A DNA stretch of 43,807 nt from a virus, in IMG/VR virus record IMGVR_UViG_3300020429_000529, positions 454,762-498,568 of that record; one strand, written 5' to 3'. A program made the translations under genes and the position numbers. Below the pieces are notes generated by a model. The model was not told the DNA's origin and did no database searches. It worked only from the letters and a program-made list of their open reading frames with translations. Position 1 is the first letter of the stretch, and each line of letters starts with the position of its first letter. This document shows positions 3,588 to 41,952 of the stretch, piece after piece.

Positions 3588-3599
3588 CAAAGATAGGTG
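3588..3599 (+). promoter_or_regulatory. CAAAGATAGGTG 12-mer, copy 1
   Basis: Exact 12-mer, downstream of the 3530-3561 terminator. Confidence 0.6.
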
Positions 3600-3845
3600 G
3601 GCGGCGTATACATAGTGGAGGGGAAGGATTCCTCTAACTGGGGCCTCGGCGCTATGGAGTTGGCGTCGGGGCCTTTTTCTTTCCGCATCTGCCCATGAGG
3701 GCTGTCTCGCTGACATCTATGGCAGACGGCTTCTCCTTGCCGTTGGGAAACTCGGTCGGCGGCGTCTCGTCGGGCGTCGTCGGCTTTACTCGCCACTGAC
3801 GGGCGGAACAATCGGGCATTTGCGTCATTCCCTGAAAGGACTCGG

Positions 3846-5405
3846 ATGCCTCAGATCACCCTCCCCAAATCGTTCTTCACCAAAGAGCGCGACAATCTCT
3901 ACTCTGACTGGCGGACCGCGTTCTGGCGCGAGGACTTCCAGAACAGCATCGACGCGGGCGCAACCGAGATCCGTATCTCCTTCGAGCAGATGGGAGATGA
4001 TCTCGCTGTCGAGTTCATCGACAATGGCTGCGGCATGACCCGAGATGTCATCGAGAATGTCTTTTTCGCGCTCGGAGAGACCACCAAGACCGGCAGCACG
4101 ACAGGCGGCTTCGGACGCGCCCGCATTCTGACATGCTTCGCTATGGGCTCTTACGAGTTCTGGACTGGCAACCTGCATGTTACGGGCGATGGCGCAAACT
4201 ACAACATCAACGACAACCAGCCTCATGTCAGCGGATGCCGCTTCCGAGTCGTCATCAACAACGAGACGGCAGAGAAGATGCGGACGGCGCTGAAGAAGGT
4301 TCTGCTGATGTCGCAGATGTCCTGCCATGTCTTCGTCGATGGCGAGCGTTGGACGAACTGGCTCCACAAGCGCCGGCTCGTCAAGACTGCGAGCTACGGC
4401 AGCATCCATGTCAACAAGAACGGACAGTTCACGAACCAGGTTATCGTCCGAGTCAATGGTCTTTGGATGTATTCCATCTACTGCGAGGCCAAGGCGCAGG
4501 TGATCGTCGAGATCGATCCGACCAAGAGCCGAGAGGTTTTGACCGTCAACCGAGACGGCATGCACTACAACTACAGCAACGACCTGCAATCATTCATCAA
4601 CGAGTTGGCTGTCGATACTCGATCGGCGCTGCGGGCACGCAGGCGCAAGACTCGGCTCATCGAAGGAACCGGCGTTCATACGACATCCCGTCCCATCGAC
4701 ATCCCGCAGAACGATTGGGAGGAAACCGCTCCTTCTGACACGATCTCTGTCGGCAACAATGTCGCTGTCGCTGCTGGCGGTACGATCGCCGCTGCGATCC
4801 AGGTCAACAGAGCGCAGTCGGTTCATGCCAACGAGGTTGAGTCTGAGATCATCAAGGGAGAGCAGATCGAGACTGGTCTGCCTGCGATCTACATCAACGA
4901 CGAGACCGATCCGATGGATCTGTCCCATGCGGCTGTTCGCAAGATCATCGACAACTTCGACCCGACCCGTTGGGTGCATGCGGTCAAGAAGGTTCGCGGG
5001 CACGAGCAGCCCTACCGCAAGGGAGCGAACTATCTCAAGCTGCTGATCGCATGGGAGGCATGTTGTCTTGAGGCGATCAAGGCGCTGCTGAACACGGACT
5101 ACGCTCCGCAGCAGTTGCGCTGGTTGGTCGGTTGGACGTTCTCTTTCGAGGACGGCGCATGTCATGTTGGTCTGTCGGAGGGTCATGCTCTTTGCTTGAA
5201 CCCTGTCAAGAAGGACGGCAAGCTGCGCTACAAGACCAGAGATCGCAGCGATCAGATTCGTCTGATGGCTCTTGCCAAGCATGAGGTTGCGCATGTCATC
5301 GTTGGTCCCCATAATGAGGACTATGCGGCGGTATTGACAGCAATCGACAGTCACTTCGATGCGCAGTCATGTTTCAAGGCGATTCGTCAAGCGCTTGCTG
5401 CATAA
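3846..5405 (+). CDS. GHKL-family (HATPase_c) ATPase-domain protein with a C-terminal HExxH motif
   Basis: Bergerat-fold motifs are present: EDFQNSIDAG, DNGCGM and GGFGRARIL. The C-terminus contains KHEVAHVIVGPH. A Shine-Dalgarno site AAAGGA precedes the start. Confidence 0.7.
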   Translation: MPQITLPKSFFTKERDNLYSDWRTAFWREDFQNSIDAGATEIRISFEQMGDDLAVEFIDNGCGMTRDVIENVFFALGETTKTGSTTGGFGRARILTCFAMGSYEFWTGNLHVTGDGANYNINDNQPHVSGCRFRVVINNETAEKMRTALKKVLLMSQMSCHVFVDGERWTNWLHKRRLVKTASYGSIHVNKNGQFTNQVIVRVNGLWMYSIYCEAKAQVIVEIDPTKSREVLTVNRDGMHYNYSNDLQSFINELAVDTRSALRARRRKTRLIEGTGVHTTSRPIDIPQNDWEETAPSDTISVGNNVAVAAGGTIAAAIQVNRAQSVHANEVESEIIKGEQIETGLPAIYINDETDPMDLSHAAVRKIIDNFDPTRWVHAVKKVRGHEQPYRKGANYLKLLIAWEACCLEAIKALLNTDYAPQQLRWLVGWTFSFEDGACHVGLSEGHALCLNPVKKDGKLRYKTRDRSDQIRLMALAKHEVAHVIVGPHNEDYAAVLTAIDSHFDAQSCFKAIRQALAA

Positions 5406-5465
5406 GGGTTTACGATAATGTCGCGAAAAATATCAAGAAACATGGAACACCAGAACGATGACGAC

Positions 5466-5494
5466 TTGCAAGCTCGATGAGAACTTGCTAATCT
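5466..5494 (+). promoter_or_regulatory. σ70-like promoter: TTGCAA, 17-nt spacer, TAATCT
   Basis: Read directly. It sits in an AT-richer intergenic stretch upstream of the 5579 gene. Confidence 0.4.
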
Positions 5495-5578
5495 GTCTCG
5501 ACCGAGCAACTCGGAAGCACAAAAACCAGGCGTGACGTTTGCCTCATACTCTCAAGGACGAGATAGGGAGGAAGAGAG

Positions 5579-6181
5579 ATGGCACTATGCATCCCAGACA
5601 ACCAGCCCATCGCACCGATGTGCAAGGAAGTAGTAGACGAATGTTGGGCGAAACGCGTACCTCCGGCTCTTGTCGCAGATCACATTACGCAGGTCGTCGA
5701 ACGGAAGATCGAGATCACAGGCATGACGCCTGGCGCAGCGAGAGACAATGTAATCGCTCTCTTGATTGAGAACGAGTACCGTTACAGCCTCGAAGACCAT
5801 CTCATCGTTTTGTCGCGCATGATTGAGAAGGGCGAAGTTGACCTGGACATTTACGCGCCTCAAGATACCCGCATCGACGATCTCCGCATGGTACATGACG
5901 GTAAGTGGGGCGAGGAGAAGGATGAGGTCGCAGAAGACATCCTGACGCCTGCCATCGATCAGGTTGTGGAAACTGGCGGGTTGACGAGGCTGATGCTTGC
6001 GGCGCAGACGGGAGACCTGGATGAGGTCATGCGTCTTGTCGAGATCGAATGCGCCGACACGCAGATCAGGTGCAACAGCAAGATGAATGCGTATCAGCGG
6101 GCACGGGACATGGGTTGGTTCGAGGTCTCAGACTACCTTGAGCAGTTCGAATCCACTGACGAGCTTGCTGAGGCTGTCTAA
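5579..6181 (+). CDS. hypothetical protein with an ankyrin-like repeat
   Basis: Shine-Dalgarno site GGGAGG. The C-terminus contains an ankyrin-like segment, GLTRLMLAAQTGDLDEVMRLVE. Confidence 0.6.
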   Translation: MALCIPDNQPIAPMCKEVVDECWAKRVPPALVADHITQVVERKIEITGMTPGAARDNVIALLIENEYRYSLEDHLIVLSRMIEKGEVDLDIYAPQDTRIDDLRMVHDGKWGEEKDEVAEDILTPAIDQVVETGGLTRLMLAAQTGDLDEVMRLVEIECADTQIRCNSKMNAYQRARDMGWFEVSDYLEQFESTDELAEAV

Positions 6182-6183
6182 CC

Positions 6184-6366
6184 ATGGAAGCTTCGAAGGA
6201 CATTCTGTTCGTCGCCGATTACCGGGGCTCGAAGAGACGGTGGAAGGTGGTCCGTCGTTACGGAGGAGGCTGGCTCTGTAGCCTTGAGGACGACGCAGCC
6301 GTCACCGCTGAGTTCACGGACGCATCGGTCAAGTTCGGTCGAGCAAGGCTCCTGGTGGAGTCCTGA
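6184..6366 (+). CDS. small hypothetical protein (60 aa)
   Basis: Tightly packed after the previous stop. GC3 is high. Confidence 0.45.
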   Translation: MEASKDILFVADYRGSKRRWKVVRRYGGGWLCSLEDDAAVTAEFTDASVKFGRARLLVES

Positions 6367-6383
6367 TCGATTAGAATGAGGCC

Positions 6384-8160: not shown

Positions 8161-8338
8161 TGAGTCCCATGAGCGTATTCCGCTTACATCTCGGCCTGTT
8201 GCTTGCGTAAGGGGAAGACCCCCGCTAACGCATCTCTTGCGCCTTGAGATGACCTCAACCCACAACTGAAGAAACCGACTATCCCAAGAGGTGACAGCAG
8301 ACCGCGGTATGCTGATCGCTTGGCGGGGTAGCTCTTTT

Positions 8339-8420
8339 GGCCCCGTGGCGGAATTGGCAGACGCGCCAGATTTAGGATCTGGTTCCCTCGGGAGTGCAGG
8401 TTCGAAGCCTGTCGGGGCTA
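8339..8420 (+). tRNA. tRNA-Leu (anticodon TAG)
   Basis: Manual cloverleaf. The anticodon loop is TTTAGGA, the variable arm is long and the T-loop is TTCGAAG. The 1:72 pair is G:U. Confidence 0.75.
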
Positions 8421-8426
8421 TTTGAG

Positions 8427-8501
8427 GCCTGGGTGCGTCAATGTGGCAGAACGGCCAGCATGAGATGCTGGTGGATGGAGGTTCGAATCCTCTCTCAGGC
8501 A
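8427..8501 (+). tRNA. class-I tRNA (short variable loop) with anticodon GAG, identity uncertain
   Basis: The loop is ATGAGAT and the variable loop is 5 nt. The T-loop TTCGAAT is canonical. A73. Same scaffold as 9173-9247. Confidence 0.5.
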
Positions 8502-8514
8502 TTTGGAGACAGTC

Positions 8515-8670
8515 ATGACGGACGAAGCGAAGCAGGATCATGGAACATTCGTAGATCCCGCAGAAGCTCTGAAGCGGGCGTATGACGCAGCGCCAGAGAA
8601 GATGGCAGAGGTTCTCGGGGGCGAGCCTCATCCTCTGCCTGAGAAGAAGGACGAAGAAGACGACGACTGA
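8515..8670 (+). CDS. small acidic hypothetical protein (51 aa)
   Basis: A GGAGA Shine-Dalgarno site lies 7 nt upstream. GC3 is high. Not in the ORF track because it is under 60 aa. Confidence 0.4.
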   Translation: MTDEAKQDHGTFVDPAEALKRAYDAAPEKMAEVLGGEPHPLPEKKDEEDDD

Positions 8671-8677
8671 ACAACTT

Positions 8678-8757
8678 GGCCCTGTGGCGGAATTGGCAGA
8701 CGCGCCGGATTCAAAACCCGGTTCTTAGGAGTGCAGGTTCGACCCCTGTCAGGGCTA
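8678..8757 (+). tRNA. tRNA-Leu (anticodon CAA)
   Basis: The loop is TTCAAAA and the variable arm is long. Paralog of 8339-8420. Confidence 0.7.
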
Positions 8758-8868
8758 TTGGAAGGAAGAGACATGCTTTTACCTGGAAGACTTCAGCTTG
8801 CTCTTTTGCTCTCTGAGAAGATCAAGGCATGGCAAGAGCGAAGGAGGCTGAAGAAGGAGGCCTCATGA

Positions 8869-9072
8869 ATGATGGACTTCAGCAACCCGCCGATGCATCG
8901 CATCGAATCGTGGGTGAACAAGTCGTTCAGAATACCTGATGCAGAGTTCACAGTAACAGATGTACGAAAGAGTCCGAAGGGATCGATCGTCGTACATGGC
9001 AGAGCAGTAGGAATACACGGATCAGTCAACAGAGTTCATTCAGCTTACTGGCTGGCGAAATGGGCTCCATAA
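8869..9072 (+). CDS. hypothetical protein (67 aa)
   Basis: An AAGGAGG Shine-Dalgarno site is upstream. The gene lies between tRNA genes. Confidence 0.45.
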   Translation: MMDFSNPPMHRIESWVNKSFRIPDAEFTVTDVRKSPKGSIVVHGRAVGIHGSVNRVHSAYWLAKWAP

Positions 9073-9077
9073 ATCAA

Positions 9078-9161
9078 GCGGACATGGCGGAATTGGCAGA
9101 CGCGCAACCTTGAGGTGGTTGTTCCCTAACGGGAGTGGAGGTTCGAGCCCTCTTGTCCGCA
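9078..9161 (+). tRNA. tRNA-Leu (anticodon GAG)
   Basis: The loop is TTGAGGT with G37. The variable arm is long. The acceptor stem GCGGACA/TGTCCGC is perfect. Confidence 0.75.
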
Positions 9162-9172
9162 TTTTACCCGAT

Positions 9173-9247
9173 GCCTGGGTGCGTCAACTTGGCAGAACGG
9201 CCATGCTCAGAACATGGTGGATGGAGGTTCGAATCCTCTCTCAGGCA
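9173..9247 (+). tRNA. class-I tRNA with anticodon CAG, identity uncertain
   Basis: The loop is CTCAGAA and the variable loop is 5 nt (TGGAT). The T-arm is canonical. A73. Confidence 0.5.
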
Positions 9248-9258
9248 CTTCCCCATTC

Positions 9259-9342
9259 GGGGGCGTAGCAGAATGGCATATGCGGCGGACTTAAAATCCG
9301 CAGTCCTCTGGACAGTTGCGGGTTCGACTCCCGTCGCCCCTA
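9259..9342 (+). tRNA. tRNA-Leu (anticodon TAA)
   Basis: The loop is CTTAAAA, the variable arm is long and the D stem is 3 bp. Confidence 0.7.
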
Positions 9343-9344
9343 TT

Positions 9345-9356
9345 CAAAGATAGGTG
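9345..9356 (+). promoter_or_regulatory. CAAAGATAGGTG 12-mer, copy 2
   Basis: Exact 12-mer, directly after tRNA-Leu(TAA). CACTGAC follows 20 nt later. Confidence 0.6.
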
Positions 9357-11205: not shown

Positions 11206-11287
11206 GTGGCCTTGGCAGATAGGCAATGCACCTGGTTGTGGTCCAGGGTCCGTAAGGACAATGCGGGTTCGAATCCCGTAGGTCACC
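11206..11287 (+). tRNA. class-II tRNA-like gene (long variable arm) with anticodon GTG, identity uncertain
   Basis: The anticodon arm is CCTGG, TTGTGGT, CCAGG. The variable arm is 15 nt, the D stem is 3 bp, the T-loop is TTCGAAT and the discriminator is C. Confidence 0.45.
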
Positions 11288-11299
11288 CTTTAGATAGAC

Positions 11300-11371
11300 A
11301 GGCTTGTAGCTCAGCGGCAGAGCGCTCCCCTGATAAGGGAGAGGACGGGATCTCGGAATTCCCCAAGCCTA
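11300..11371 (+). tRNA. tRNA-Ile (anticodon GAT)-like with a degenerate T-loop
   Basis: The acceptor stem and anticodon arm are nearly identical to bacterial tRNA-Ile(GAU). The T-loop is CTCGGAA and lacks T54 and A58. Confidence 0.45.
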
Positions 11372-11372
11372 T

Positions 11373-11457
11373 TGGGTCGTGCGCCGAATTGGTTAGGCAC
11401 CCGACTGATAATCGGGGAGCGTTAAGCTCTATGCAGGTTCGAGTCCTGTCGGCCCTA
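11373..11457 (+). tRNA. class-II tRNA-like gene with anticodon GAT, identity uncertain
   Basis: The anticodon arm is CCCGA, CTGATAA, TCGGG. The 16-nt variable arm forms a hairpin. Position 1:72 is a mismatch. Confidence 0.4.
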
Positions 11458-11476
11458 TTGACGATACACTGAATGA

Positions 11477-12405: not shown

Positions 12406-13470
12406 AGATTGGCCCAACAGCAATGGGAAAGCCAATCGACATACGCAGAGATCCGAACCTGCTTGCAGAAAGGATCAAAGCTTCAAGATTCAGGTACGAA
12501 TAGATGGAAACATCTTCAAATACCTGAGTACGCCTCAGTTCGCTATGTCTCGTACATGACGGCTGAGCGAGCAAGAAACCGAAAGGGAAACTTGCTTGAG
12601 GCACACCAACTTGAGAGAGTTGGAAGCATGTGGCCGCTAACGGGCACTGACCGGCGACGGTCTGAGCAACGAGCGACAGTCATCCGAGCGAGGAAACTCG
12701 TTGGGATGGCTTTCACCAAGGCTTGTCAGTTCAACCTTCATGGTGACATAGAAGAACTGACCTCTGACTGGTCCCGGTCAGCCAAAAGGGACAGGCATGT
12801 TGGCATACCTGAGTATGTCCTACCGCCTCGTTCCAGACGCGTGGGTCGTCTGTTCGCCCTCTGCACGTTCTTCGAACCTGCATGGTGACAACGGCTTGAA
12901 AATATGGCTCATGGTCGAGTCAAACACGGTCCCTTGGTTCAGGCTTAACGGGTAGGCCTCAAACGGCCAACAGTCTGCGTCAGCGTTAAAAGCGTAACGC
13001 AGGCTTTCCCAATACCTTGCCAAGCTCTCAAAGAGGGAGGGCAGCAAGGCTCTGGCTGCTCACGGCTAAACCAAGAGTGAGAGGCAGTTCATGCCTTCAT
13101 AAGACTCGGCGGCCTTCCTTCGATGCCTGGTAAACATCGATGAGCGGAGGATGCCTGTGTCAATGTAGAAATGGGCTACAGAGGTCCGGGTGAGAAACCC
13201 GGCCCTTCTGTTTTCCGCAGTCGAATGCGCAATACCTGATCTCTGCCGCCCTTGGAAAAGGCACGATCAACGCAGAAGGATGGGCGCTTCGACGGTCGAG
13301 ATCAGTTCGGCGAATGTTCTGCAGAACTCGTCGGGCACGGAGATGTGACGGCTTCAATCCGTCATGGCGAGTTTCGATTCTCGTCCTCGGTTTTCCTCAG
13401 CGGCGGGCGTCGATGGCTACGGCGCAGCAGAGACTCAAGCCCCTTGTCTTCGGACGAGGGGCTTTTTTCG
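12406..13470 (+). ncRNA. about 1 kb region with poor coding potential, ending in a strong terminator. Candidate long structured RNA or regulatory region.
   Basis: The only long ORF, 12409-12888, lacks the GC3 bias seen in every accepted gene. Hairpins are present, for example GATTGGC...GCCAATC at 12406-12437. Terminator at 13438-13468. Confidence 0.3.
13438..13468 (+). terminator. rho-independent terminator
   Basis: GCCCCTTGTC, TTCG loop, GACGAGGGGC, then TTTTTTCG. Confidence 0.8.
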
Positions 13471-13508
13471 TGCGCTGCCACTGACCTCTACCTGCTGAAA
13501 TCTTGGTC

Positions 13509-13898: not shown

Positions 13899-14534
13899 AT
13901 GGCGAGCAAATCCAAGTCCAAGTCGTCCGCCGCTGCCACGCTGACCGCCCCCAAGGGCTCGGTCCACAATGTCGTCGAGTTCAGCGACGACTCGAAGACC
14001 GATGTGTTCGATCTCGTCGCGTCGTACAACCCCAAGAAGGACGGCTCCTGGCAGGAGTTCATCAAGTCCGATCGGGTCCGCGAGGCGCTGGGCCGCAAGC
14101 TGCTCATCAACGAGACGGGTCTGTCGGTCCCGCTCGACGGCAAGGTTGCCGATGCCGCTGCCGCTCTGTCGGGCGTCGTTACGGTCTGGGGCGGTATCTC
14201 CCAGAACTGGGAGGCGACCAGCGCCTACGGCAACCAGCACTACACCGCTCAGGGGCCGATGCACTTCAACGGCGTCGATCGCCTCTCGACCGATGCGCTC
14301 ATGCTCAACGCCGCCATGTTCATCGAGGTCATCGCCCAGCGCGCCGGGCTCAAGGCCCTCTCGCCCGATGATCCGAACTTCGCTCAGGCGCAGGCGGCTC
14401 TCTCGGCTCTCCGCCAGTTCGCTCAGAACCGCCCCGGCGAGATCAAGGACGCCAAGAAGGCGCAGATGTACGCTGCGGTCGGCAAGGGCGATGAGGCCGA
14501 GGTCGTCAGCAAGGCCGATACCGCCGCTGCCTGA
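13899..14534 (+). CDS. Ala-rich hypothetical protein (211 aa), probably highly expressed
   Basis: Strong AAAGGAGA Shine-Dalgarno site 7 nt upstream. Very strong GC3 bias. A terminator hairpin follows. Confidence 0.75.
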   Translation: MASKSKSKSSAAATLTAPKGSVHNVVEFSDDSKTDVFDLVASYNPKKDGSWQEFIKSDRVREALGRKLLINETGLSVPLDGKVADAAAALSGVVTVWGGISQNWEATSAYGNQHYTAQGPMHFNGVDRLSTDALMLNAAMFIEVIAQRAGLKALSPDDPNFAQAQAALSALRQFAQNRPGEIKDAKKAQMYAAVGKGDEAEVVSKADTAAA

Positions 14535-14975: not shown

Positions 14976-14987
14976 CAAAGATAGGTG
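14976..14987 (+). promoter_or_regulatory. CAAAGATAGGTG 12-mer, copy 3
   Basis: Exact 12-mer, 7 nt upstream of ATG 14995. Confidence 0.6.
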
Positions 14988-14994: not shown

Positions 14995-15720
14995 ATGTCA
15001 TTCATCGAAGTCCAAGACGGCGTTGCACTGATCGATGCGAACCAATGGGTCCGCATCAAAGCCATAGGCGAAACAGAGAGCCCCAACATCAGAGGCGGCA
15101 CTGTTATCTTCTATGGCGCTGAGCAGAAGAAGGTCATCGACGAGCCATCCCGACTGAAGGATCGAACCGAGTTCGCAGATCCTCCTCTGGATCCTGCTGC
15201 ATGGGACGACTTCATCAACGGTCGCATTACTGAGTCCGTCTGGCGAGATCGTCAGCGTGCTTTTGGCGACAGCAACGGCTTCGGCTACATCCTTGACGGC
15301 ATCGGCGGCAACAAGGTCTTCGAGACTGACCGAGATCGCTACGACCGCCTGTACGCTCAGTATGGTCCCGACGACATGCCTCGGCACACCTATTGGACGA
15401 CAGAACGTTCTCATTACGAGCCGTCGCATTTTGATTGGCAAGGAGTTCCAACAAACAATGGCGGTAACTGGCATACTCTACCTGGCAATATCATCGAGAT
15501 GGATCTGAAGCCTGAAGTTAACTACGAGGTACAAGTCATCCGTCCTGATGTTCCTGCTAATGAGACGTATCTGATTCTCGGAGGGGCCGTCGAGGAGCCG
15601 CAGGCACCTTCAAGGAATCCGGAGTTCGGCGCTGCTCGGCTCCATGATCCGATCTTCAGTACGCCAGCGGGCAAGTTCGGCAGGCCGCTCGCCACTGACG
15701 ATTCGCAGGACGATTCGTAG
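14995..15720 (+). CDS. hypothetical protein (241 aa)
   Basis: Start at ATGTCATTC, immediately after CAAAGATAGGTGGAGAACT. GGTGGAG serves as the Shine-Dalgarno site. Confidence 0.6.
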   Translation: MSFIEVQDGVALIDANQWVRIKAIGETESPNIRGGTVIFYGAEQKKVIDEPSRLKDRTEFADPPLDPAAWDDFINGRITESVWRDRQRAFGDSNGFGYILDGIGGNKVFETDRDRYDRLYAQYGPDDMPRHTYWTTERSHYEPSHFDWQGVPTNNGGNWHTLPGNIIEMDLKPEVNYEVQVIRPDVPANETYLILGGAVEEPQAPSRNPEFGAARLHDPIFSTPAGKFGRPLATDDSQDDS

Positions 15721-15792
15721 GGGTACTTGCAGGTGCCGCTCGAAAGCGGTACGATGCGGAAGAAGTCCGACAACCCTTACGGAGAAACAGCC

Positions 15793-16245
15793 ATGAGCGA
15801 CGGCGAAGCCACCAGCACCACCCCCAAAACCAAGCGCAAGTCCATCGAGGTTCCGCAGTTCGACAGCGCCGACGCGCTGATGACGCTCGTCCAGGGCCAT
15901 CGTACCGCCACCGCCGACGACAACGCCCGCCAGTTCACCGGCGAGGGCTTCAAGTCCGCTGGCGGCATCGACAGCCTCCCCCTCAACACGAGGGCTCTCA
16001 TGGCGGCTTCGCTCGTCATGTCGATCGCCAACGACGCCCAGGGCGACGGCGACGAGGGCAAGGCGGCGACCGCTGTTCTCGGCATTCTGACGCCGTTCGT
16101 CGGCGACGCGCAGACCCATGCGACCGAGGCGGCGAAGCTCAGCGCCTACGAGCAGATCGCTGCCCTCGAAGGCATCGACGCTCGCAAGGCCGACGAGACT
16201 TCGGCGCAGTTCATCGCTCGCGTCAAGAAGGCCACGAAGGGCTAA
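15793..16245 (+). CDS. hypothetical protein (150 aa)
   Basis: GGAGAAACAGCC then ATG. A terminator lies downstream at 16290-16328. Confidence 0.6.
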   Translation: MSDGEATSTTPKTKRKSIEVPQFDSADALMTLVQGHRTATADDNARQFTGEGFKSAGGIDSLPLNTRALMAASLVMSIANDAQGDGDEGKAATAVLGILTPFVGDAQTHATEAAKLSAYEQIAALEGIDARKADETSAQFIARVKKATKG

Positions 16246-16289
16246 TCGCCCTCGACAACTGACCCACCACTCTTCTCCTCGGAGAGGCC

Positions 16290-16328
16290 ACGGGCACGGT
16301 CCTTGCACAACGGGCCGTGCCTTTTTTC
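16290..16328 (+). terminator. rho-independent terminator
   Basis: GGCACGG...CCGTGCC followed by TTTTTTC. Confidence 0.7.
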
Positions 16329-16383
16329 TCGCCACTGACAATTCGAACCTGCCGCTACGCTGTACCTCAAACAGGAGACAGCC

Positions 16384-16590
16384 ATGAGCTTCGGAACCCC
16401 TCCCGAGAACCCGCCCAATAGCACGGCGGTCTGCATTGATGTTCCGCAGGAAATGACCCCCGAACAGCAGCGGGATTTCGCTCAGCGGATGAGCCGAGCC
16501 GCCCGAGAGATGGGCTTCGATGGCGCTCAGGCGATATGGGTGCAGTCATACGGCGACCGCTTCGGCGATCCCGTCTTCTACATCCCATGA
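16384..16590 (+). CDS. hypothetical protein (68 aa)
   Basis: Shine-Dalgarno site CAGGAGACA. The stop TGA lies inside CCACTGAC. Confidence 0.55.
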   Translation: MSFGTPPENPPNSTAVCIDVPQEMTPEQQRDFAQRMSRAAREMGFDGAQAIWVQSYGDRFGDPVFYIP

Positions 16591-16622
16591 CCCACTGACA
16601 TCAGAACAAGGATGTAAGAACC

Positions 16623-16901
16623 ATGTGCGAAGGCAATTACAAGATCAAGTTCCGTTGTCCCGACGAGACATGCGGCGGAGAAGTTCTCGAAGAGGTTATG
16701 GTTGACGTTACTCAGTCGTCCAACCTCAACGAGATCACGGATGAGGGCGACATCGAGTATGGCGATACGAGCGCCGATGGCGGAGTCGTAGATCGTTACC
16801 AGTGCATGCGCTGCGGCAAGGTGGTTCCGCTCGGCGATGATCCTCAGCCCGATGACCTGTTCGCCTGGCTTCGCGACAACAACATGTTGGAGCAGGCATG
16901 A
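16623..16901 (+). CDS. zinc-ribbon protein (92 aa)
   Basis: CPDETCGG...CMRCG. CACTGAC, then 23 nt, then ATG. Confidence 0.55.
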   Translation: MCEGNYKIKFRCPDETCGGEVLEEVMVDVTQSSNLNEITDEGDIEYGDTSADGGVVDRYQCMRCGKVVPLGDDPQPDDLFAWLRDNNMLEQA

Positions 16902-17224
16902 TGATGGGCATGTCCATGTCGATGCAGATGCTCTGCACGGTCTGTCAGCAGCCTATTACGGGCCCTGACGCCGATCAGAACGCTGTCCATGTTGCGCTCG
17001 TTGGAGCGTGTCACAAGAACTCATCGGCTTGCTGCAAATGCCATCAACCTGTAGGCGTTGAGAGTCAGACCTCCGCCTACAAGCGGCGCTGGCGCGACTA
17101 CATGAAGCTGTTTGCTGCTCGTCGGCTGAGAGAGATCGCCGATGCGGGCACTGACATGACGAGTTTGCATCTTGAGGAACTGAGAACGATCGCCAACTTC
17201 CTTGATGGAGGCTCGCAGCTATGA
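16898..17224 (+). CDS. Cys-rich hypothetical protein (108 aa)
   Basis: ATGA overlap with the upstream gene. Contains CTVCQQ...CCKCHQ. Confidence 0.5.
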   Translation: MMMGMSMSMQMLCTVCQQPITGPDADQNAVHVALVGACHKNSSACCKCHQPVGVESQTSAYKRRWRDYMKLFAARRLREIADAGTDMTSLHLEELRTIANFLDGGSQL

Positions 17225-17457
17225 AGTATTACCTGGTCTTTGTTACGGGCTGCACTGAGCCGTCCCATGAAGCAGTCGATTCGCATGAGCATGGCCTGCG
17301 CCGCTACTGCGAAGACCTCATCAGCGGCGAATGCGATGAGGGCACTGATTGCGCCTTCATGCTTCAGATCGACGACAAGGGAGAGCCCAACACCTACGCT
17401 TTCTCGAACTCGGAGGTCGAGGAGATGCGGGCTCAGTTGGAAGGAGACCCCGAATGA
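17221..17457 (+). CDS. hypothetical protein (78 aa)
   Basis: ATGA overlap with the upstream gene. Confidence 0.5.
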   Translation: MKYYLVFVTGCTEPSHEAVDSHEHGLRRYCEDLISGECDEGTDCAFMLQIDDKGEPNTYAFSNSEVEEMRAQLEGDPE

Positions 17458-17696
17458 GCAAGAGAACTGTCCTTCTCCGCTCGGACCATCCTGGCGAGGA
17501 CGAGGCGTACACCATCTGCGCTGTCGAGATCGACACCGATTCGATCACTCTCGATGACTTCGAGAAGCGGGCCACAGCCATGATGGACGAGATTCGGGAG
17601 CGTCCCGAGTACGAGGACAGCGAACTTGTCGTCGCCCTCGAACGCGCTGGCTTCAGCGTCGTTCCTGCGCCGACCGAGATCATCGTCCGCAGTTGA
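17454..17696 (+). CDS. hypothetical protein (80 aa)
   Basis: ATGAGCAAG start overlaps the upstream stop. The stop lies inside TGACACTGAC. Confidence 0.5.
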   Translation: MSKRTVLLRSDHPGEDEAYTICAVEIDTDSITLDDFEKRATAMMDEIRERPEYEDSELVVALERAGFSVVPAPTEIIVRS

Positions 17697-17740
17697 CACT
17701 GACGATCCGGCGACGGGTCAGAAGCGAAGGAGCAACAACT

Positions 17741-18391
17741 ATGGACGACTCAGGTCAAACCCAACTCGCAGACGGAACCACTCGCATCCAGTTCGTGCCG
17801 ACGCATCAGCAGTTGACCAAGATCGCTGATGACATGGCGGGCCTTGTTGATACCTACAGTCACAATGCGCCCGAAATCGACGCAAATCTCGGCAGCGACA
17901 GGTTCAGAAGGCGAGCGAGAGAACTCGAACTTGATATCGAGCAGCTTCGGCTCATCGCCGCCAAGCTCGAACGAGAGCCTGATCCTGGCGTTCTGGCTGA
18001 TCGCATCTACAACTGGCTCAAGGACTGGGTGACCGCAACTTTCGCGGGCAAGGACATGACCAAGAGCGGTCCCTTCCTGACGCCTGGCTTCGTCCACAAC
18101 GCCATCCTCGACATCCTGACCGATCAGTACCGCCATCTCGACTCTGTTCAGCGAGAAGCGATCACCGACATGACGGCGCAAGTCATGGTCGCCCGAGGCA
18201 ACGATAATGTCACGCTGCTTACGGGCACCGGCCCCGCGAGGGCGTTGATGGTTCGAGAGGGTTGGTCGATTGCGCAGATGCTCGAATACTGCGGCTTCGA
18301 CGAGGGCAACCTTCGTCAGCGGCTCGACTTCGATCCCGACACCGGCGGAGATTGGTACACTGACGATGACGACGAGGCAGAGAGCGAATGA
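17741..18391 (+). CDS. hypothetical protein (216 aa)
   Basis: GAAGGAGC Shine-Dalgarno site. The start was moved in from the ORF-track TTG. Confidence 0.6.
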   Translation: MDDSGQTQLADGTTRIQFVPTHQQLTKIADDMAGLVDTYSHNAPEIDANLGSDRFRRRARELELDIEQLRLIAAKLEREPDPGVLADRIYNWLKDWVTATFAGKDMTKSGPFLTPGFVHNAILDILTDQYRHLDSVQREAITDMTAQVMVARGNDNVTLLTGTGPARALMVREGWSIAQMLEYCGFDEGNLRQRLDFDPDTGGDWYTDDDDEAESE

Positions 18392-18840
18392 GAATCATCA
18401 CCGTCAACGACATGACCTTCGAGAACGCCGGCGACGTTCGCATCGACGTTCGGATCGAGGGCATCGGCTCTCTCCTTGTCAACTGCACGAGCGAGGGCGT
18501 CATCATCGACGCTTTCGGCGAGGACGGAGAGCAGATCGGGACATCTTCTGAGATGTTCGACGAGATCCATGAGCGGCTCCGCCTCAAAGAGGCTCGCTTC
18601 GCAGCGGCAGCGCAGATCAACGCCGCCATCGACGAGCTTCCCCAAAGCCGACAGGCTGAGATCCAAGCTGTCCTGGACGAACTGACCGACGACATGAAGG
18701 GCAGCGAGCGAGCGGACCTCAACAACGGCGCTGGCGTCGAGCAGATCGAATACCTGCTGACGAGCCATGCTGATGTTGAGCAGGCGGTCGCTTCGTTGAA
18801 GAATGACCTCGAAAACAATGGCGTTGGACTCGGGCACTGA
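18388..18840 (+). CDS. hypothetical protein (150 aa)
   Basis: ATGA overlap with the upstream gene. Confidence 0.55.
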   Translation: MRIITVNDMTFENAGDVRIDVRIEGIGSLLVNCTSEGVIIDAFGEDGEQIGTSSEMFDEIHERLRLKEARFAAAAQINAAIDELPQSRQAEIQAVLDELTDDMKGSERADLNNGAGVEQIEYLLTSHADVEQAVASLKNDLENNGVGLGH

Positions 18841-18857
18841 CTGAGATCAAGGACGAC

Positions 18858-19589
18858 ATGAGCATGAACGACAGAGAACGACAGACCGTTGCCGCAGCGC
18901 TCCAATACTGGAACGACATGGAAATGTCTCGACTGGTCGAGGAATCCATGACGAGCGAGGAAGCCAATGACGCTGCTGGTCGCTATCGTCCCTTCTTCGA
19001 CGCTCACTACCCTCTCAACGGTGATGAGATCGCAGCCCTTGTCGAGCGGACGCTGAAGGGCGACAACTTCTCGCAGTTCGGCTATGAGATCAGCGGCGGC
19101 TATATCTCTTTCCCCGACCATGATGACGGCACCATCCGCCGCGTCGATGACGACGGCAACACGATGGAGATTCGTCGCTGGGGCGATGATAACTACGACG
19201 AATGGGCCGAGTTGTTTGTCAACTACCCCGCCTTCGTCGCTCTGCGCATCGCTCGAACGATCGAGGCTGTTCAGTTGCGGTACTCCAAGCAGGGCGCGTC
19301 TGACACTGAGCCTGACTACCAGATCCATCAGATCATGCGCCTGGCAGCGGACGGGCACCCTTACGACGACTCGATTCGGTTCGACTTGTATTGGTCGGGC
19401 GCTGATGCCGAGATGCAGGAGGCTTGCGAACAGGGCAACACCGAGCTTCACAACGCCTGTCGTTTCGCTCATAGCGAGATCGAGCGTATGAGGTCGAACA
19501 TCCCTGCTTCGGAGTTCGCCGACTTCCGCAACTCGCTCGCCGAGACATTTGATCGGGTCGATTGGGGCGTCAACATCGCCACTGACTGA
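18858..19589 (+). CDS. hypothetical protein (243 aa)
   Basis: CACTGAC is upstream and the start is ATGAGCATGAAC. Confidence 0.6.
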   Translation: MSMNDRERQTVAAALQYWNDMEMSRLVEESMTSEEANDAAGRYRPFFDAHYPLNGDEIAALVERTLKGDNFSQFGYEISGGYISFPDHDDGTIRRVDDDGNTMEIRRWGDDNYDEWAELFVNYPAFVALRIARTIEAVQLRYSKQGASDTEPDYQIHQIMRLAADGHPYDDSIRFDLYWSGADAEMQEACEQGNTELHNACRFAHSEIERMRSNIPASEFADFRNSLAETFDRVDWGVNIATD

Positions 19590-19611
19590 TCGAGCATAGG
19601 GGAGCAGCATG
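19579..19611 (+). promoter_or_regulatory. representative CCACTGAC, 22 nt, ATGAGC start cassette
   Basis: CCACTGAC at 19579-19586. ATG at 19609. Confidence 0.6.
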
Positions 19612-25517: not shown

Positions 25518-25520
25518 GAC

Positions 25521-25829
25521 ATGCTCAACAAGATCCCGTTCTTTGGCTGGATTCTCACCGCCATCGCCGCTATCGGCCTCGCTGTTCCGTTCTGGCTCTG
25601 TTGGACGATCGGCGGCATCGGCGCAACCTTCTTTGGAGCGTGGCTGCCCGCTCAGTTCGTTGCGCCTGGCTTCTGGCAGATTTTTGGTCTGTTCATCTGC
25701 CTCGGCATCTTCAAGTGGATTCTGTCCTGCATCACGCCGCGGTTCGCCGTTGTTAGCGTCAGCAACGACAGCACTTCCAAGTCGAAAAACCAGAACGCCT
25801 CTGTCAAGGCGCAGGGTCCTGCACAATGA
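25521..25829 (+). CDS. membrane protein (102 aa)
   Basis: Three hydrophobic helices. Confidence 0.5.
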   Translation: MLNKIPFFGWILTAIAAIGLAVPFWLCWTIGGIGATFFGAWLPAQFVAPGFWQIFGLFICLGIFKWILSCITPRFAVVSVSNDSTSKSKNQNASVKAQGPAQ

Positions 25830-26149
25830 ACCTGATCCGCAACAACTCCGAAACCGACAGCAAAGGGCTGTTCTGGTCCAACGACGATGGTTGGGTCGGG
25901 ATCGAAGATGCAGACATCTTTCAGGATCAAAGCCTGAACCTGCCCATCGACGGCGAATGGGTCGAGGGCGCAGCACTGATCTTCGAGCTTCATCGGGCTG
26001 CGAGTCGATCCCTCGCTTGCTTCCGAGAGATGTACGACCGGATGGAAGCAGGTGCCGACGCTGCGGCTATAATGGAGGACAGCAATCTATGGCCGCTGAC
26101 ATGGCTGCGCGACAGCCTCGGCGGTCTCACTGTCGAGTACGAGGACTGA
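25826..26149 (+). CDS. hypothetical protein (107 aa)
   Basis: ATGA overlap with the upstream gene. Confidence 0.5.
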   Translation: MNLIRNNSETDSKGLFWSNDDGWVGIEDADIFQDQSLNLPIDGEWVEGAALIFELHRAASRSLACFREMYDRMEAGADAAAIMEDSNLWPLTWLRDSLGGLTVEYED

Positions 26150-26150
26150 T

Positions 26151-26603
26151 ATGAAACTTCTCAAGAGCGGCAAGGGCATCCTTGCACTGATCGTGCTGCT
26201 GGTCGTTGCCGTCATCGGCATCAAGGTCGCTTTCTTCGGCGTATGGGCTGGCTACAGCGATGGTCAGCGCGTCGGAACACTGCATCAGTTCACGCAGAAG
26301 GGCGTCTACCGAATCGGCAAGGGCGAACTGCTCATCAACGACTTCGGCGTCTCTGGCGGAGGCAAGGGCGCAACGACCATCGGTAACAACTGGACGTTCA
26401 ACGTCAGCGACGACGAGTTGATCGAAGCGTGCCGTAACTCCATCGACAAGCGGATCATCGTCGAGTACCGCCAATGGTGGAGATCGCCCTGGTACATGAC
26501 GACCGACTACGAGGTCATCCTCATCCGAGACGCCGATACCAACGAGATCATCGCTCCGAAGAGGACGGGCACTGACGGATCGTTACCTGCATCTGAGCCA
26601 TGA
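26151..26603 (+). CDS. secreted or membrane-anchored protein (150 aa)
   Basis: N-terminal hydrophobic helix. Confidence 0.55.
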   Translation: MKLLKSGKGILALIVLLVVAVIGIKVAFFGVWAGYSDGQRVGTLHQFTQKGVYRIGKGELLINDFGVSGGGKGATTIGNNWTFNVSDDELIEACRNSIDKRIIVEYRQWWRSPWYMTTDYEVILIRDADTNEIIAPKRTGTDGSLPASEP

Positions 26604-26929
26604 GCCACGCAGTAATCATCCATCACGTTGCGTCCGTCGCAGTTCCCGACAACGAGCGAGAGGCGGTCATGCTTGCCATCGCCTCGGCCAATCAGTTTGT
26701 CAACGACAACTACGATGTCGATGACGAGAACACGGCCTACTTTGCCCCTTGCGGTTCGAGCGTTCTCGTTCCGATTCGTAAGGACATCGTGGGCAATCTG
26801 CTTGTTTGGGTCGAGACGGCGCAGGTTCAGATCCCCCATTTCATCGCCAACATGTCTGCGGCGTTGCAGGCGAACGGTATCCGCCTTCGGGATTGCGCCA
26901 GCGTTGGCGGATTCCGACAGACCGCATAA
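26600..26929 (+). CDS. hypothetical protein (109 aa)
   Basis: ATGA overlap with the upstream gene. Confidence 0.5.
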   Translation: MSHAVIIHHVASVAVPDNEREAVMLAIASANQFVNDNYDVDDENTAYFAPCGSSVLVPIRKDIVGNLLVWVETAQVQIPHFIANMSAALQANGIRLRDCASVGGFRQTA

Positions 26930-26938
26930 GGAGCCAAC

Positions 26939-27451
26939 ATGAATCGCGGAGTCGCATTTCTGATCGGTCTCGTTCTTCTCATCCCTTTGGTCATCCATCA
27001 GATCGGAGCCTACTACAAGGGCTACATGTTCGACATTCAGGTCGCCAACTATCTCAAGCGGGCGGCTGATGCGCCGAGCCTCGTCCTCGCGACGGAGGCG
27101 ATGGACACAGCGATCGAGGGCATCGAGAGTCGAGGTCTGACCGAGGGCAACAGCGGCATCATCTTCAAGAAGCCTGAGCATGATGTCGGCTACTGGTACA
27201 AACAGATCACTGATGCTCGGGCGGAACTCGCTCAGGCAGAGGAGGAGGGCGGCGAACTCGTCGAGTCCAATGCCCTGATGAAGCTGAGGGAGGTTCTGCT
27301 CGATTCGGGCTCTGAGGGCGATGCTCTCACCGTCCCAATCCGAGCGGCGACCTTCCCGAACCATGTCGCATGGTCGGTCACGCTCTGGATCTTCGCTCCC
27401 ATCGGCATCATCGGTTTCTTCTTCATCATTGGATCGTTCCATTCAAGCTGA
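26939..27451 (+). CDS. membrane protein (170 aa)
   Basis: Shine-Dalgarno site AAGGAG. Hydrophobic helices at both the N- and C-terminus. Confidence 0.6.
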   Translation: MNRGVAFLIGLVLLIPLVIHQIGAYYKGYMFDIQVANYLKRAADAPSLVLATEAMDTAIEGIESRGLTEGNSGIIFKKPEHDVGYWYKQITDARAELAQAEEEGGELVESNALMKLREVLLDSGSEGDALTVPIRAATFPNHVAWSVTLWIFAPIGIIGFFFIIGSFHSS

Positions 27452-27482: not shown

Positions 27483-27494
27483 CAAAGATAGGTG
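27483..27494 (+). promoter_or_regulatory. CAAAGATAGGTG 12-mer, copy 4
   Basis: Exact 12-mer. Confidence 0.6.
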
Positions 27495-28668: not shown

Positions 28669-28680
28669 CAAAGATAGGTG
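28669..28680 (+). promoter_or_regulatory. CAAAGATAGGTG 12-mer, copy 5
   Basis: Exact 12-mer, after a terminator hairpin. Confidence 0.6.
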
Positions 28681-31115: not shown

Positions 31116-31127
31116 CAAAGATAGGTG
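31116..31127 (+). promoter_or_regulatory. CAAAGATAGGTG 12-mer, copy 6
   Basis: Exact 12-mer, after a terminator hairpin. Confidence 0.6.
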
Positions 31128-32292: not shown

Positions 32293-32304
32293 CAAAGATA
32301 GGTG
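32293..32304 (+). promoter_or_regulatory. CAAAGATAGGTG 12-mer, copy 7
   Basis: Exact 12-mer, after a terminator hairpin. Confidence 0.6.
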
Positions 32305-34444: not shown

Positions 34445-34456
34445 CAAAGATAGGTG
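34445..34456 (+). promoter_or_regulatory. CAAAGATAGGTG 12-mer, copy 8
   Basis: Exact 12-mer, after a long hairpin and inverted-repeat region. Confidence 0.6.
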
Positions 34457-36530: not shown

Positions 36531-36588
36531 ACCGCCTGCTCAGCCCGTCGCCCTTGAGCTTAGCTCGGGCGACAGGGTTTTCCCGCGC

Positions 36589-36600
36589 CAAAGATAGGTG
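36589..36600 (+). promoter_or_regulatory. CAAAGATAGGTG 12-mer, copy 9
   Basis: Exact 12-mer, after a terminator hairpin. Confidence 0.6.
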
Positions 36601-37384: not shown

Positions 37385-37420
37385 ACTCAAGAGAAACTGC
37401 CCGCCCCTGAAACATGGGGC
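37385..37420 (+). terminator. rho-independent terminator
   Basis: GCCCGCCCCTGAAACATGGGGCGGGC followed by TTGTTTT. Confidence 0.7.
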
Positions 37421-37461
37421 GGGCTTGTTTTCCACTGACGCATAGCCGACCGAGCAACGGC

Positions 37462-38656: not shown

Positions 38657-38668
38657 CAAAGATAGGTG
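38657..38668 (+). promoter_or_regulatory. CAAAGATAGGTG 12-mer, copy 10
   Basis: Exact 12-mer, after a terminator hairpin. Confidence 0.6.
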
Positions 38669-39444: not shown

Positions 39445-39531
39445 TCCGTCAACCCATCAGAACCCCTCAACGGCTCCGCCTCATCGGGCGGGGCCGTTGT
39501 TTCACTGACTGAACCGAGCAGAGGCAGAGGC

Positions 39532-40781: not shown

Positions 40782-40804
40782 CGACCTGACGCGGTAGCAT
40801 CGGC

Positions 40805-41206
40805 ATGAGCAACAACCGCCGAATCAGCTTTGACCTTCCGACCACCACCGAGGGCGTCGTCATCGAAGTCGTCGCCCGATACACCAAGGGAGACCCGTAC
40901 AGCAGCGAGCAGCAAGGTTTCTGGATCGGCATGACGCCGGTCAAGGTTGAAGAGAACTGGCGGACCACCCGAGCATTCTCTGGCCTCAAGGCGTTTGATT
41001 CGACCGCAACCCGCTTCAGCGCCAAGAAGCTCGAAGCCGTCCGAGATAAGGTCCGCCATCAGATCATGAACGGCACCCCCACTGACCGCTACGCCATGAT
41101 GCTACAGCGAGTCGTCGAACAAGCGGGACTCAAGCTCGAACGAACCGTCCTCGCCGAGAAGCACGCCGAACGAGCCGCCGAAGTCGCCGAAGCCCTCGCA
41201 TCCTGA
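40805..41206 (+). CDS. hypothetical protein (133 aa)
   Basis: Cassette start ATGAGCAAC. A terminator follows. Confidence 0.55.
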   Translation: MSNNRRISFDLPTTTEGVVIEVVARYTKGDPYSSEQQGFWIGMTPVKVEENWRTTRAFSGLKAFDSTATRFSAKKLEAVRDKVRHQIMNGTPTDRYAMMLQRVVEQAGLKLERTVLAEKHAERAAEVAEALAS

Positions 41207-41239
41207 ACTCCTCGCCCCCGAAGTAGGGGGTTGCTTCAG

Positions 41240-41251
41240 CAAAGATAGGTG
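41240..41251 (+). promoter_or_regulatory. CAAAGATAGGTG 12-mer, copy 11
   Basis: Exact 12-mer, after a terminator hairpin. Confidence 0.6.
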
Positions 41252-41291
41252 AGCCGCTTGCTCACTGACAACCTGGCGCTCCCGCAACCGC

Positions 41292-41549
41292 ATGAGCAAA
41301 CTCCCCAAACACCTCCGAGAGATGGACCCCGAGAACCTCGCGAAGCTCCAAACCGGCTTCGCCCGCTTCCGCTTCGGATTCGCTGAGCCCGGCGAGATCC
41401 AGAACGGCGCGGAGTTTGTGGGCAACTTCGGGCGCAAGAAGGATGCCGTCGCCGCTCGCGAAGCCTGCGATGGGACGATGAACCCCTATCTTCACGGTCG
41501 CCTGGCTACAGGTTGGTCCGTTTGGAAGAAGGCCCCACTGACGACCTGA
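41292..41549 (+). CDS. hypothetical protein (85 aa)
   Basis: Cassette start ATGAGCAAA. Confidence 0.5.
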   Translation: MSKLPKHLREMDPENLAKLQTGFARFRFGFAEPGEIQNGAEFVGNFGRKKDAVAAREACDGTMNPYLHGRLATGWSVWKKAPLTT

Positions 41550-41592
41550 CGGCGCAGCAACAGCGAGCAACCCAAGAGCAAGGGGAACCGAC

Positions 41593-41898
41593 ATGAGCGA
41601 CCGCAAGCGAATTCTGTGCATCACCAGCAACGGCGAGGAAGTCATCTTCGGAACGATTCGGTGGACCGATCATCCGAGCGATCCCGAGACCCGCGTCGCG
41701 TTCGTCCGCGATGAACAGGATCCCGATGATGAGATCCGCCTTGTGGACATGGATATCCTCGAAGTCAGCGATGCCCCCGATGAGGACGATGAGCCCTGGG
41801 ACGGCTTCCGACATGACGGCGAAGCCGACGCCGATGCCCTGGCTTCCGCTGGCTTTGGGACCGATGAGGACTACGGCGGCGACTGCGAACACCTCTAA
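41593..41898 (+). CDS. highly acidic protein (101 aa), possible DNA mimic
   Basis: Shine-Dalgarno site AAGGGGAA. The C-terminal half is about 35% Asp/Glu. Confidence 0.55.
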   Translation: MSDRKRILCITSNGEEVIFGTIRWTDHPSDPETRVAFVRDEQDPDDEIRLVDMDILEVSDAPDEDDEPWDGFRHDGEADADALASAGFGTDEDYGGDCEHL

Positions 41899-41940
41899 CC
41901 CCTCAGGCACCCGCAACAGGGTGCCAAACTTTCCGCGCCC

Positions 41941-41952
41941 CAAAGATAGGTG
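41941..41952 (+). promoter_or_regulatory. CAAAGATAGGTG 12-mer, copy 12
   Basis: Exact 12-mer, after a terminator hairpin. Confidence 0.6.

Follow-up and report, generated by a model that had tools for sequence, protein, structure and literature searches.

A conserved 12-mer at the heads of gene units in a very large phage-like element

The 12-mer CAAAGATAGGTG occurs in twelve exact copies, all on the + strand, in a 43,807-nt stretch of DNA (the window) from the virus record IMGVR_UViG_3300020429_000529. We treat the source as a very large (~0.5 Mb) phage-like element. The word is a real, strongly selected signal across a family of such elements, lying between genes, mostly just past a GC-rich stem-loop, and recurring in distant relatives. 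We put at about even the chance that it serves as a promoter peculiar to the element, opening each transcription unit. A second, shorter word, CACTGAC, marks gene starts more generally and deserves no less interest than the 12-mer.

The 12-mer in the window and in distant relatives

An earlier sequence-only reading of this DNA had listed twelve positions for the 12-mer, and all twelve are exact copies on the + strand (Table 1). No further site appears in the window at up to two mismatches, where shuffled sequences lead one to expect ~1.8. Counting sub-words of CAAAGATAGGTG of at least 8 nt gives exactly 12 for each on the + strand of the window and 0 or 1 on the − strand, so the exact copies are not surrounded by a halo of degenerate ones. 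With gene calls taken from sister contigs, genes and tRNAs leave 15.7% of the window free, and 12 of the 12 copies fall wholly within this part, a placement with a probability by chance of ~2e-10.

A GC-rich stem-loop ends 5-31 nt upstream of 10 or 11 of the 12 copies, which bears out the earlier remark that the word almost always follows a terminator hairpin. Several of these structures are textbook intrinsic terminators with T-tracts. The 50 nt upstream of the copies fold with a median of −19.1 kcal/mol, as against −11.9 in random 50-mers (p = 1e-5) and −12.1 at CACTGAC gene starts without a 12-mer (p = 3.5e-4). Downstream, CACTGAC follows after 7-31 nt in 10 of the 12 copies, the exceptions being 3588, where it is 194 nt off, and 14976, where it is absent. 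The next start codon lies 36-94 nt from the word, save at 3588 (246 nt) and at 14976, where the ATG is 7 nt away, as had been noted. In the right arm the copies come at ~1 per 1.8 kb and head nine units, rather than the roughly twelve first proposed.

Several copies have a setting of their own. Nothing but a terminator trails the copy at 3588, and this points to a short RNA. The unit at 3588-3690, for which Rfam returned no match, could specify an RNA of ~80 nt or an attenuating leader before the gene for a GHKL ATPase of 519 amino acids. The copy at 9345 directly follows the last tRNA gene in an array of six tRNA-Leu genes (8338-9342). The one at 14976 heads a tightly packed gene block of ~12.5 kb (14995-27451) without CACTGAC. 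The position of the copy at 32293 is kept in a relative, L035, where a 12-mer at 2559 lies past the orthologous gene. The gene after the last copy has a 56-nt spacer that contains a Shine-Dalgarno sequence.

Table 1. Positions of the 12-mer copies and associated features, in window coordinates unless another sequence is named.
Feature	Position	Strand	Upstream	CACTGAC	Next start	Remark
Stem-loop before copy 1	3527..3558	+				GGCCGTCGCTCC TTCG GGGGCGGCGGC TTTTTT; ends the gene finishing at 3504; 29 nt ahead of the 12-mer
12-mer copy 1	3588..3599	+	stem-loop 3527..3558	none within 190 nt		stands alone
Strong terminator-like hairpin	3640-3675					followed by TTTTTCTTTCC; 40 nt past copy 1, no gene between
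12-mer copy 2	9345..9356	+	tRNA-Leu(TAA) 9259-9342	9377	9408	starts 2 nt past the tRNA
Terminator-like hairpin	13437-13485					CACTGAC-N22/23-ATG directly after, no 12-mer
12-mer copy 3	14976..14987	+	stem-loop 14933-14970	none	ATG 14995
12-mer copy 4	27483..27494	+	stem-loop 27459-27474	27518	ATG 27547
12-mer copy 5	28669..28680	+	stem-loop 28628-28657, then TTTTCTCGCCT	28692	ATG 28721
12-mer copy 6	31116..31127	+	stem-loop 31071-31104	31135	ATG 31164
12-mer copy 7	32293..32304	+	stem-loop 32246-32284	32314
12-mer copy 8	34445..34456	+	weak stem-loop 34419-34434	34466	ATG 34496
12-mer copy 9	36589..36600	+	stem-loop 36544-36577, then TTTTCCCGCGC	36617	ATG 36646
Terminator-like hairpin	37399-37439					CACTGAC-N22/23-ATG directly after, no 12-mer
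12-mer copy 10	38657..38668	+	short GC stem-loop 38634-38647	38679	ATG 38708
Terminator-like hairpin	39478-39509					CACTGAC-N22/23-ATG directly after, no 12-mer
12-mer copy 11	41240..41251	+	stem-loop 41214-41231	41263	ATG 41292
12-mer copy 12	41941..41952	+	stem-loop 41906-41925	41984	ATG 42047
Non-coding region of ~1 kb	−2068 to −1050 (L001 4087-5105)					between a − strand Fic-like gene and the + strand block
Sole − strand 12-mer	45309 (L010 ~14494-14505)	−				outside the window; points into a + strand terminator

A metagenome scan queried with the 12-mer followed by CACTGAC within 5-35 nt returned 95 loci, mostly single chance co-occurrences. About 13 distinct contigs (43-57% GC) carry many copies of both words, on one strand only. 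The relatives amount to 74.5 kb of non-redundant sequence with 33 exact 12-mers and 108 copies of CACTGAC, and neither word occurs on the other strand. We also joined the window and its fetched flanks into a 57-kb stretch of the ~499-kb contig. In this stretch and the relatives together, 47 exact 12-mers are co-oriented with the genes and one is opposed. The relatives encode homologues of the window proteins at 27-75% identity and in partial synteny, but blastn finds no similarity between them and the window, and the order of the 12-mer-headed units is shuffled from one to another.

The window and the relatives have one layout in common: a stem-loop (often with TTTTTCGCGC), the 12-mer, 1-38 nt, CACTGAC, 22-23 nt and an ATG. 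An alignment of an orthologous gap leaves only the 12-mer, CCCACTGACT and ATGA as conserved blocks. Family-wide, a stem of at least 6 bp ends no more than 35 nt upstream of 67% of the copies as against 18% of random positions, and a run of at least four T accompanies only 15 of 48 upstream hairpins. A few one-mismatch variants stand in the right context (CAAAGATGGGTG, CTAAGATAGGTG, AAAAGATAGGTG and CAAAGATAGGTA). The gap to CACTGAC, ranging over 1-38 nt, has no helical phasing. The two words are thus separable elements, as first supposed, and a single bipartite promoter made up of both was rejected on the same grounds.

Across 48 unique contexts the flanks of the 12-mer are uninformative (≤0.4 bits per position) except for a pyrimidine at −1 and an A at +1, so that the word with its conserved edges reads Y-CAAAGATAGGTG-A. 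As judged from these flanks, it is not part of a longer dispersed repeat. We consider it very improbable that the 12-mer is the core of a dispersed repeat or the end of a mobile cassette, or else a replication, packaging or recombination signal, in either case playing no direct part in gene expression. The idea could draw on the cassette-like reordering of 12-mer-headed units between relatives, on longer flanks common to four neighbouring cassettes of L035 and on a similarity of 62-81% over 42 nt among six window copies (family D5). The last of these is explained by G-rich 3' hairpin arms and T-tracts, however, and strict placement at intergenic unit heads with an orientation tied to the genes would not be expected of packaging or replication signals.

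CACTGAC at gene starts

The + strand of the window carries 72 copies of CACTGAC, between 1193 and 43569, and the − strand none. The hexamer CACTGA lies on the strand opposite the genes in 1 of 114 cases in the 57 kb and 1 of 197 in the relatives, where ~14-18 would be expected. This near-total purge suggests an orientation-dependent signal at the DNA level, antisense copies of which would be harmful.

The distance to the start codon is tightly distributed. In the 57 kb an ATG lies exactly 22-23 nt downstream of 46 copies, and overall roughly half of the sites have this spacing. Over 194 unique sites the first ATG that opens a reading frame is 22 nt away in 52 cases, 23 nt in 34 and 24 nt in five, and spacings of 25-33 nt are almost absent. 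In a second class the ATG is 34-77 nt away, with a Shine-Dalgarno core in 41 of 47. The 22-23 nt class has the start context C(-1)ATGAGCAAC and usually no Shine-Dalgarno sequence, and genes without CACTGAC carry a normal GGAG. The gene-start consensus is CACTGAC-N14-GCAnCAGC-ATG-AGC-AAC. The AGC AAC (Met-Ser-Asn) after the ATG in this class, from 27547 onward, is conserved at the nucleotide level both at 59% and at 44-49% GC, which suggests a nucleic-acid signal reaching into the first codons.

On the simplest reading, the position ~23 nt past CACTGAC behaves as the 5' end of the mRNA, which would begin either at the ATG itself (leaderless) or with a leader long enough for a ribosome-binding site. 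CACTGAC, at −29 to −23 of the start codon, would then be a per-gene promoter element of unusual geometry for leaderless mRNAs. Two other explanations were tried and rejected. As a sigma-70 promoter (−35 CTGACN, a spacer of 17-18 nt and a −10 nAnCAT ending in the AT of the ATG) the spacing fits, yet the start site would lie ~7 nt inside the gene. The ATG is a genuine start: orthologues agree from the first 5-10 codons on, and alternative starts do not exist. As a termination-reinitiation signal, CACTGAC would be expected to supply the upstream stop codon, and its TGA does so in just 8 of 46 cases.

CACTGAC precedes ~78% of right-arm genes. Its presence after 9 of the 9 right-arm 12-mers therefore needs no special coupling (background 0.78, p ~0.1). 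The sequence-only reading had described CCACTGAC as following the 12-mer. Rather than a partner of the 12-mer, it is a general gene-start element.

The wider group seems to share the use of a leaderless promoter for each gene. Two distant relatives found by protein homology lend support to this reading, since they have the same design with other words, a clear −10 box and the ATG placed where transcription would start. One of them, L011, has TTGACA-N17-TATAAT-N7-ATG. It also has a palindromic, operator-like ACTTCTAG-SS-CTAGAAGT in the gap between terminator and promoter. Another, L136, has TTCCCAC...GGTATAAT-N6-ATG (that is, TTCCCAC-N12-GTATAAT-N6-ATG) in 42 copies per 12 kb, with one on the other strand.

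Two further words were seen alongside these signals. TTTT(T)C(N)CGCGC recurs after terminator hairpins in L035, L033, L023, L086 and others, and in the window at 36578-36588 and 41930-41940 and beyond it at 45634-45650. In lower-GC relatives it is also found inside the spacer from CACTGAC to ATG (as TTTTCGCGCAAA, partly palindromic). The word TTTTCGCG occurs 26 times on the + strand and six times on the other.

The element and its flanks

The window corresponds to positions ~401,022-444,828 of a contig of 498,610 bp (ENA ERZ17089788, NODE_1289088). Identical proteins are found on contigs of 498,618 and 502,461 bp, on Tara Oceans scaffolds (station 128, deep chlorophyll maximum, 0.22-3 µm) and in other marine metagenome runs. 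The window has ~59% GC and 13 tRNA genes, and nearly all its genes lie on one strand. About 100 proteins can be read in the element, with a recognisable family in almost none. Searches of the ten largest against Pfam and PHROGs gave matches for a DnaB/KaiC-like ATPase, a GHKL ATPase and a metallophosphoesterase, and for nothing else. The metallophosphoesterase has 35-37% identity to those of large Alphaproteobacteria phages and of a cyanophage, which is only a weak hint to the host.

No close relatives were found among INPHARED phages, IMG/VR or GTDB species genomes. What matched there was tRNA sequence or a single co-occurrence by chance, one case being a coding repeat of a Flavobacteriales metagenome-assembled genome. 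A scan with Rfam matched only tRNAs, and in the literature the exact 12-mer turns up only in primers or unrelated sequence. Contig ends were considered as evidence of transcripts and rejected, all contigs with the region being metagenomic. The group that carries the 12-mer belongs to very poorly known giant elements.

The left flank adds two exact 12-mers and one two-mismatch copy (TGAAGATAGGTG), arranged in tandem with starts 31 and 22 bp apart. This triple lies at the left edge of the ~1 kb non-coding region listed in Table 1, beside a divergently transcribed gene, and the region could be a control region or an origin. It also contains repeated GCACTGTTTGC and CTTCAG(A/G)GC words. At the other end, the − strand 12-mer at 45309 marks the right edge of the + strand, motif-governed gene block. 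The genes beyond it, including a − strand block at ~47.5-50.7 kb, have neither the 12-mer nor CACTGAC.

The tRNA complement has peculiarities of its own. Long variable arms (class II) are the normal shape of Leu, Ser and Tyr tRNAs. The tRNAs at 11206-11288 and 11372-11458 have such arms, yet their anticodons are those of His (GTG) and Ile (GAT). A further tRNA at 11300-11371 was detected by Rfam only.

Possible functions of the 12-mer and comparison with known systems

As a promoter recognition element, the 12-mer would restart transcription just past the stem-loop that ends the previous unit. Its reader would be a transcription apparatus specified by the element, either an RNA polymerase of its own or a sigma-like factor, since the word does not change between relatives that differ widely in base composition and has no likeness to a host sigma-70 promoter. 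Such sameness among lineages of differing composition is what one would expect if conserved core machinery reads the signal. The one copy that lies 7 nt before a start codon, at 14976, suggests a geometry in which the word lies at about −19 to −8 and initiation takes place ~8 nt downstream. This would make it one compact element close to −10, in the manner of the early promoters of jumbo-phage virion polymerases or of T4 late promoters. Most units would next meet a second, gene-proximal signal in CACTGAC. If that is a per-gene promoter, the first gene of each unit would own two tandem promoters, which probably differ in the time of use or in the form of polymerase that uses them.

The promoter reading fits the placement of all 12 copies, which are intergenic, co-oriented with the genes and at the heads of gene groups after stem-loops. 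It would likewise fit the exact word at corresponding places in relatives, where the rest of the DNA cannot be aligned. The 12-mer can also stand alone, as at 3588, in the operon at 14976 without CACTGAC and in the tandem triple that opens the long + strand block. Sigma-70-like promoters are not above shuffle expectation in the window. The sequence-only reading had proposed a terminator-plus-restart unit. Its arrangement stands, being intergenic, co-oriented, past a stem-loop, at unit heads and conserved in relatives; the start of transcription at the word, and what reads it, we infer.

Several observations weigh against a promoter. No polymerase or sigma gene appears among the family matches in the 57 kb read out of ~499 kb of contig. 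Transcripts from the 12-mer would have leaders of 30-60 nt, mostly without a Shine-Dalgarno sequence. Three terminators, at 13437, 37399 and 39478, lead straight to CACTGAC, so the 12-mer is not required for restart and is an optional module between terminator and gene start. The lone − strand copy at 45309 faces a terminator and has no gene to drive. The relatives were retrieved through the exact motif, which makes the claim of invariance partly circular, since lineages with another word would be missed. Indeed, four relatives found by protein homology only (L011, L012, L136 and L138) are without the 12-mer.

Taken together with CACTGAC, the promoter reading extends to a picture that we offer tentatively, as possible rather than probable: a two-tier expression code, independent of host promoter rules, in uncultured aquatic elements of ~0.5 Mb. 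The 12-mer would serve unit restart and CACTGAC would be a per-gene leaderless promoter on nearly every gene, at −29 to −23 with C(−1)A(+1)TG and a TATA-box-like spacing. If true, such a code would imply an element-encoded polymerase or initiation factor of an undescribed kind.

Since most starts of units and genes are marked by the invariant 12-mer and the 7-mer together, the two words provide an entry to predicting operons, timing classes and, by affinity capture, reader proteins. If the readers are encoded by the element, they would represent a new promoter specificity, maybe a new polymerase or factor, conserved over lineages of 43-59% GC, and the signals would make up a compact orthogonal promoter-and-terminator cassette. 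The motif pair is also a sequence tag for the family, which pulled otherwise unrecognisable relatives from metagenomes.

The strand specificity of the word would also suit a transcribed signal that acts within the nascent RNA or the non-template strand. One option is a processing site, separating the mRNAs of units after a protective 3' hairpin; others are a site where an antitermination factor is loaded at a pause, as RfaH is at ops and Nus factors are at boxA, and an anchor of Shine-Dalgarno type (AGGUG). We think this unlikely. Leaders of rrn operons with boxB and boxA likewise have a hairpin followed by a conserved linear word of ~12 nt, and the ops element that loads RfaH, with the consensus GGCGGTAGnnTG, is 12 nt long and ends in TG. 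The 12-mer matches neither ops nor boxA; it shares only TAG and the final TG with ops, which was rejected as an identity since, in addition, there is no room for a promoter between stem-loop and word. The scarcity of T-runs means that many hairpins may be leaky or may stabilise RNA. A loader after every terminator would be illogical, however, and antiterminator loading, one of the functions first suggested, is a poor fit because only transcripts passing the upstream stem-loop could cross the 12-mer. AGGTG can pair with the anti-Shine-Dalgarno sequence, and the spacing at 14976 is correct for a ribosome-binding site, but a start codon is near just one of the 12 copies. In a manual check against the 3' tail of 16S rRNA, only AGGUG paired and the upstream half of the word did not. 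For the stand-alone copies, in the tandem triple and after the tRNA, there is no unit upstream from which processing could release them, and none of the Rfam families matches.

In the main alternative, which we hold to be considerably less likely than a promoter, a regulator encoded by the element would bind the asymmetric 12-mer as a monomer; the sequence-only reading had likewise listed an operator for a phage-encoded DNA-binding protein. Such a regulator might act in one orientation to block polymerases leaking through the stem-loop (insulation) or might control the adjacent CACTGAC promoter, and the tandem triple outside the window would be its main operator cluster. The model is the stoperators of Cluster A mycobacteriophages, bound by the L5 gp71-type repressor, which are asymmetric 13-mers in >20 copies per genome, lie in promoter regions and short gaps and follow the direction of transcription (PMC9283540). 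The 12-mer shares this asymmetric, multi-copy, intergenic and transcription-oriented character at a similar length (12-13 bp, near-identical copies) and a similar density in the right arm. A probable promoter, CACTGAC, lies downstream in 10 of the 12 copies, and the triple beside the divergent gene resembles an operator array. The reversed copy at 45309 would meet leftward transcription from the − strand gene block, and L011 has its operator-like palindrome in the equivalent gap between terminator and promoter. On the other hand, immunity-type sites co-evolve with their repressor and diverge, as stoperators do with immunity group, whereas the 12-mer is identical at 27-75% protein identity. Stoperators, which block elongation in one orientation only when the immunity repressor is bound, have no link to terminator hairpins, and they serve the lysogeny of temperate phages of ~50 kb. 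The unphased spacing to CACTGAC argues against a contact-dependent activator, and the 14976 copy heads an operon without any other recognisable promoter. No candidate for the DNA-binding protein or repressor was identified.

Among known promoters, a sigma-70 type (TTGACA-/TATAAT-like, 16-18 bp apart) was rejected because nothing is conserved 14-19 nt upstream of the 12-mer. A promoter of a T7-type single-subunit polymerase (~23 bp, −17 to +6) was likewise rejected, as no more than 12-14 nt are conserved. The late promoters of T4, with the sequence TATAAATA and gp55 as their reader, consist of a single short, near-invariant element near −10, without a −35 box, throughout a wide phage family, and often lie downstream of other promoters for the same gene. 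The 12-mer is likewise single, short and near-invariant, but its sequence differs, no gp55 homologue was identified here, and the T4 promoters are not known to be linked to terminators.

A likeness to the start-associated sequences of actinobacteriophages had also been suggested. In Cluster K phages the start-associated sequence (SAS) is GGGATAGGAGCCC, located 3-7 bp before start codons, with an AGGAG core and frequently preceded by an imperfect inverted repeat; what it does has yet to be established (PMC3203893, PMC12699233). Like SAS and the extended start-associated sequence (ESAS), the 12-mer has a GATAGG core, is asymmetric and lies in one orientation in a non-structural arm (here a region of small genes of unknown function). 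It is also conserved across sub-lineages before unrelated genes, often with an inverted repeat just upstream. The resemblance does not extend further. Only GATAGG and a G two bases on are shared with GGGATAGGAGCCC, with at least three mismatches in the best register, and the CCC positions of GGGATAGGAGCCC land on the non-conserved flank of the 12-mer. The 12-mer has AGGTG instead of AGGAG, and the 3-7 bp position holds for one of the 12 copies. With both the sequence rule and the position rule failing, the 12-mer is not a member of the SAS family.

The closest parallel to the promoter reading is found in jumbo phages with their own polymerases, where a ~10-nt motif, strongly conserved and with its centre near −10, is the mark of early operons; in AR9 some genes bear early and late promoters in tandem (PMC7598289). 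The known motifs, such as those read by the virion polymerases of phiKZ and AR9, are AT-rich and have mapped starts, whereas the 12-mer is 58% A+T and known from sequence alone. They also vary from phage to phage, and the 12-mer is identical in at least five lineages. Split beta/beta' polymerase genes, which go with the jumbo-phage systems and one set of whose products is packaged in the virion, were not seen in the 57 kb read here. The likeness in position, with the known motifs near −10 and the 12-mer at a proposed −19 to −8, comes from the copy at 14976 alone. In both cases a compact, conserved word of about this length, recognisable from the sequence by itself and unrelated to host sigma-70 promoters, stands before operons of small, early-type genes, and the source of the 12-mer, at ~0.5 Mb, is itself phage-like.

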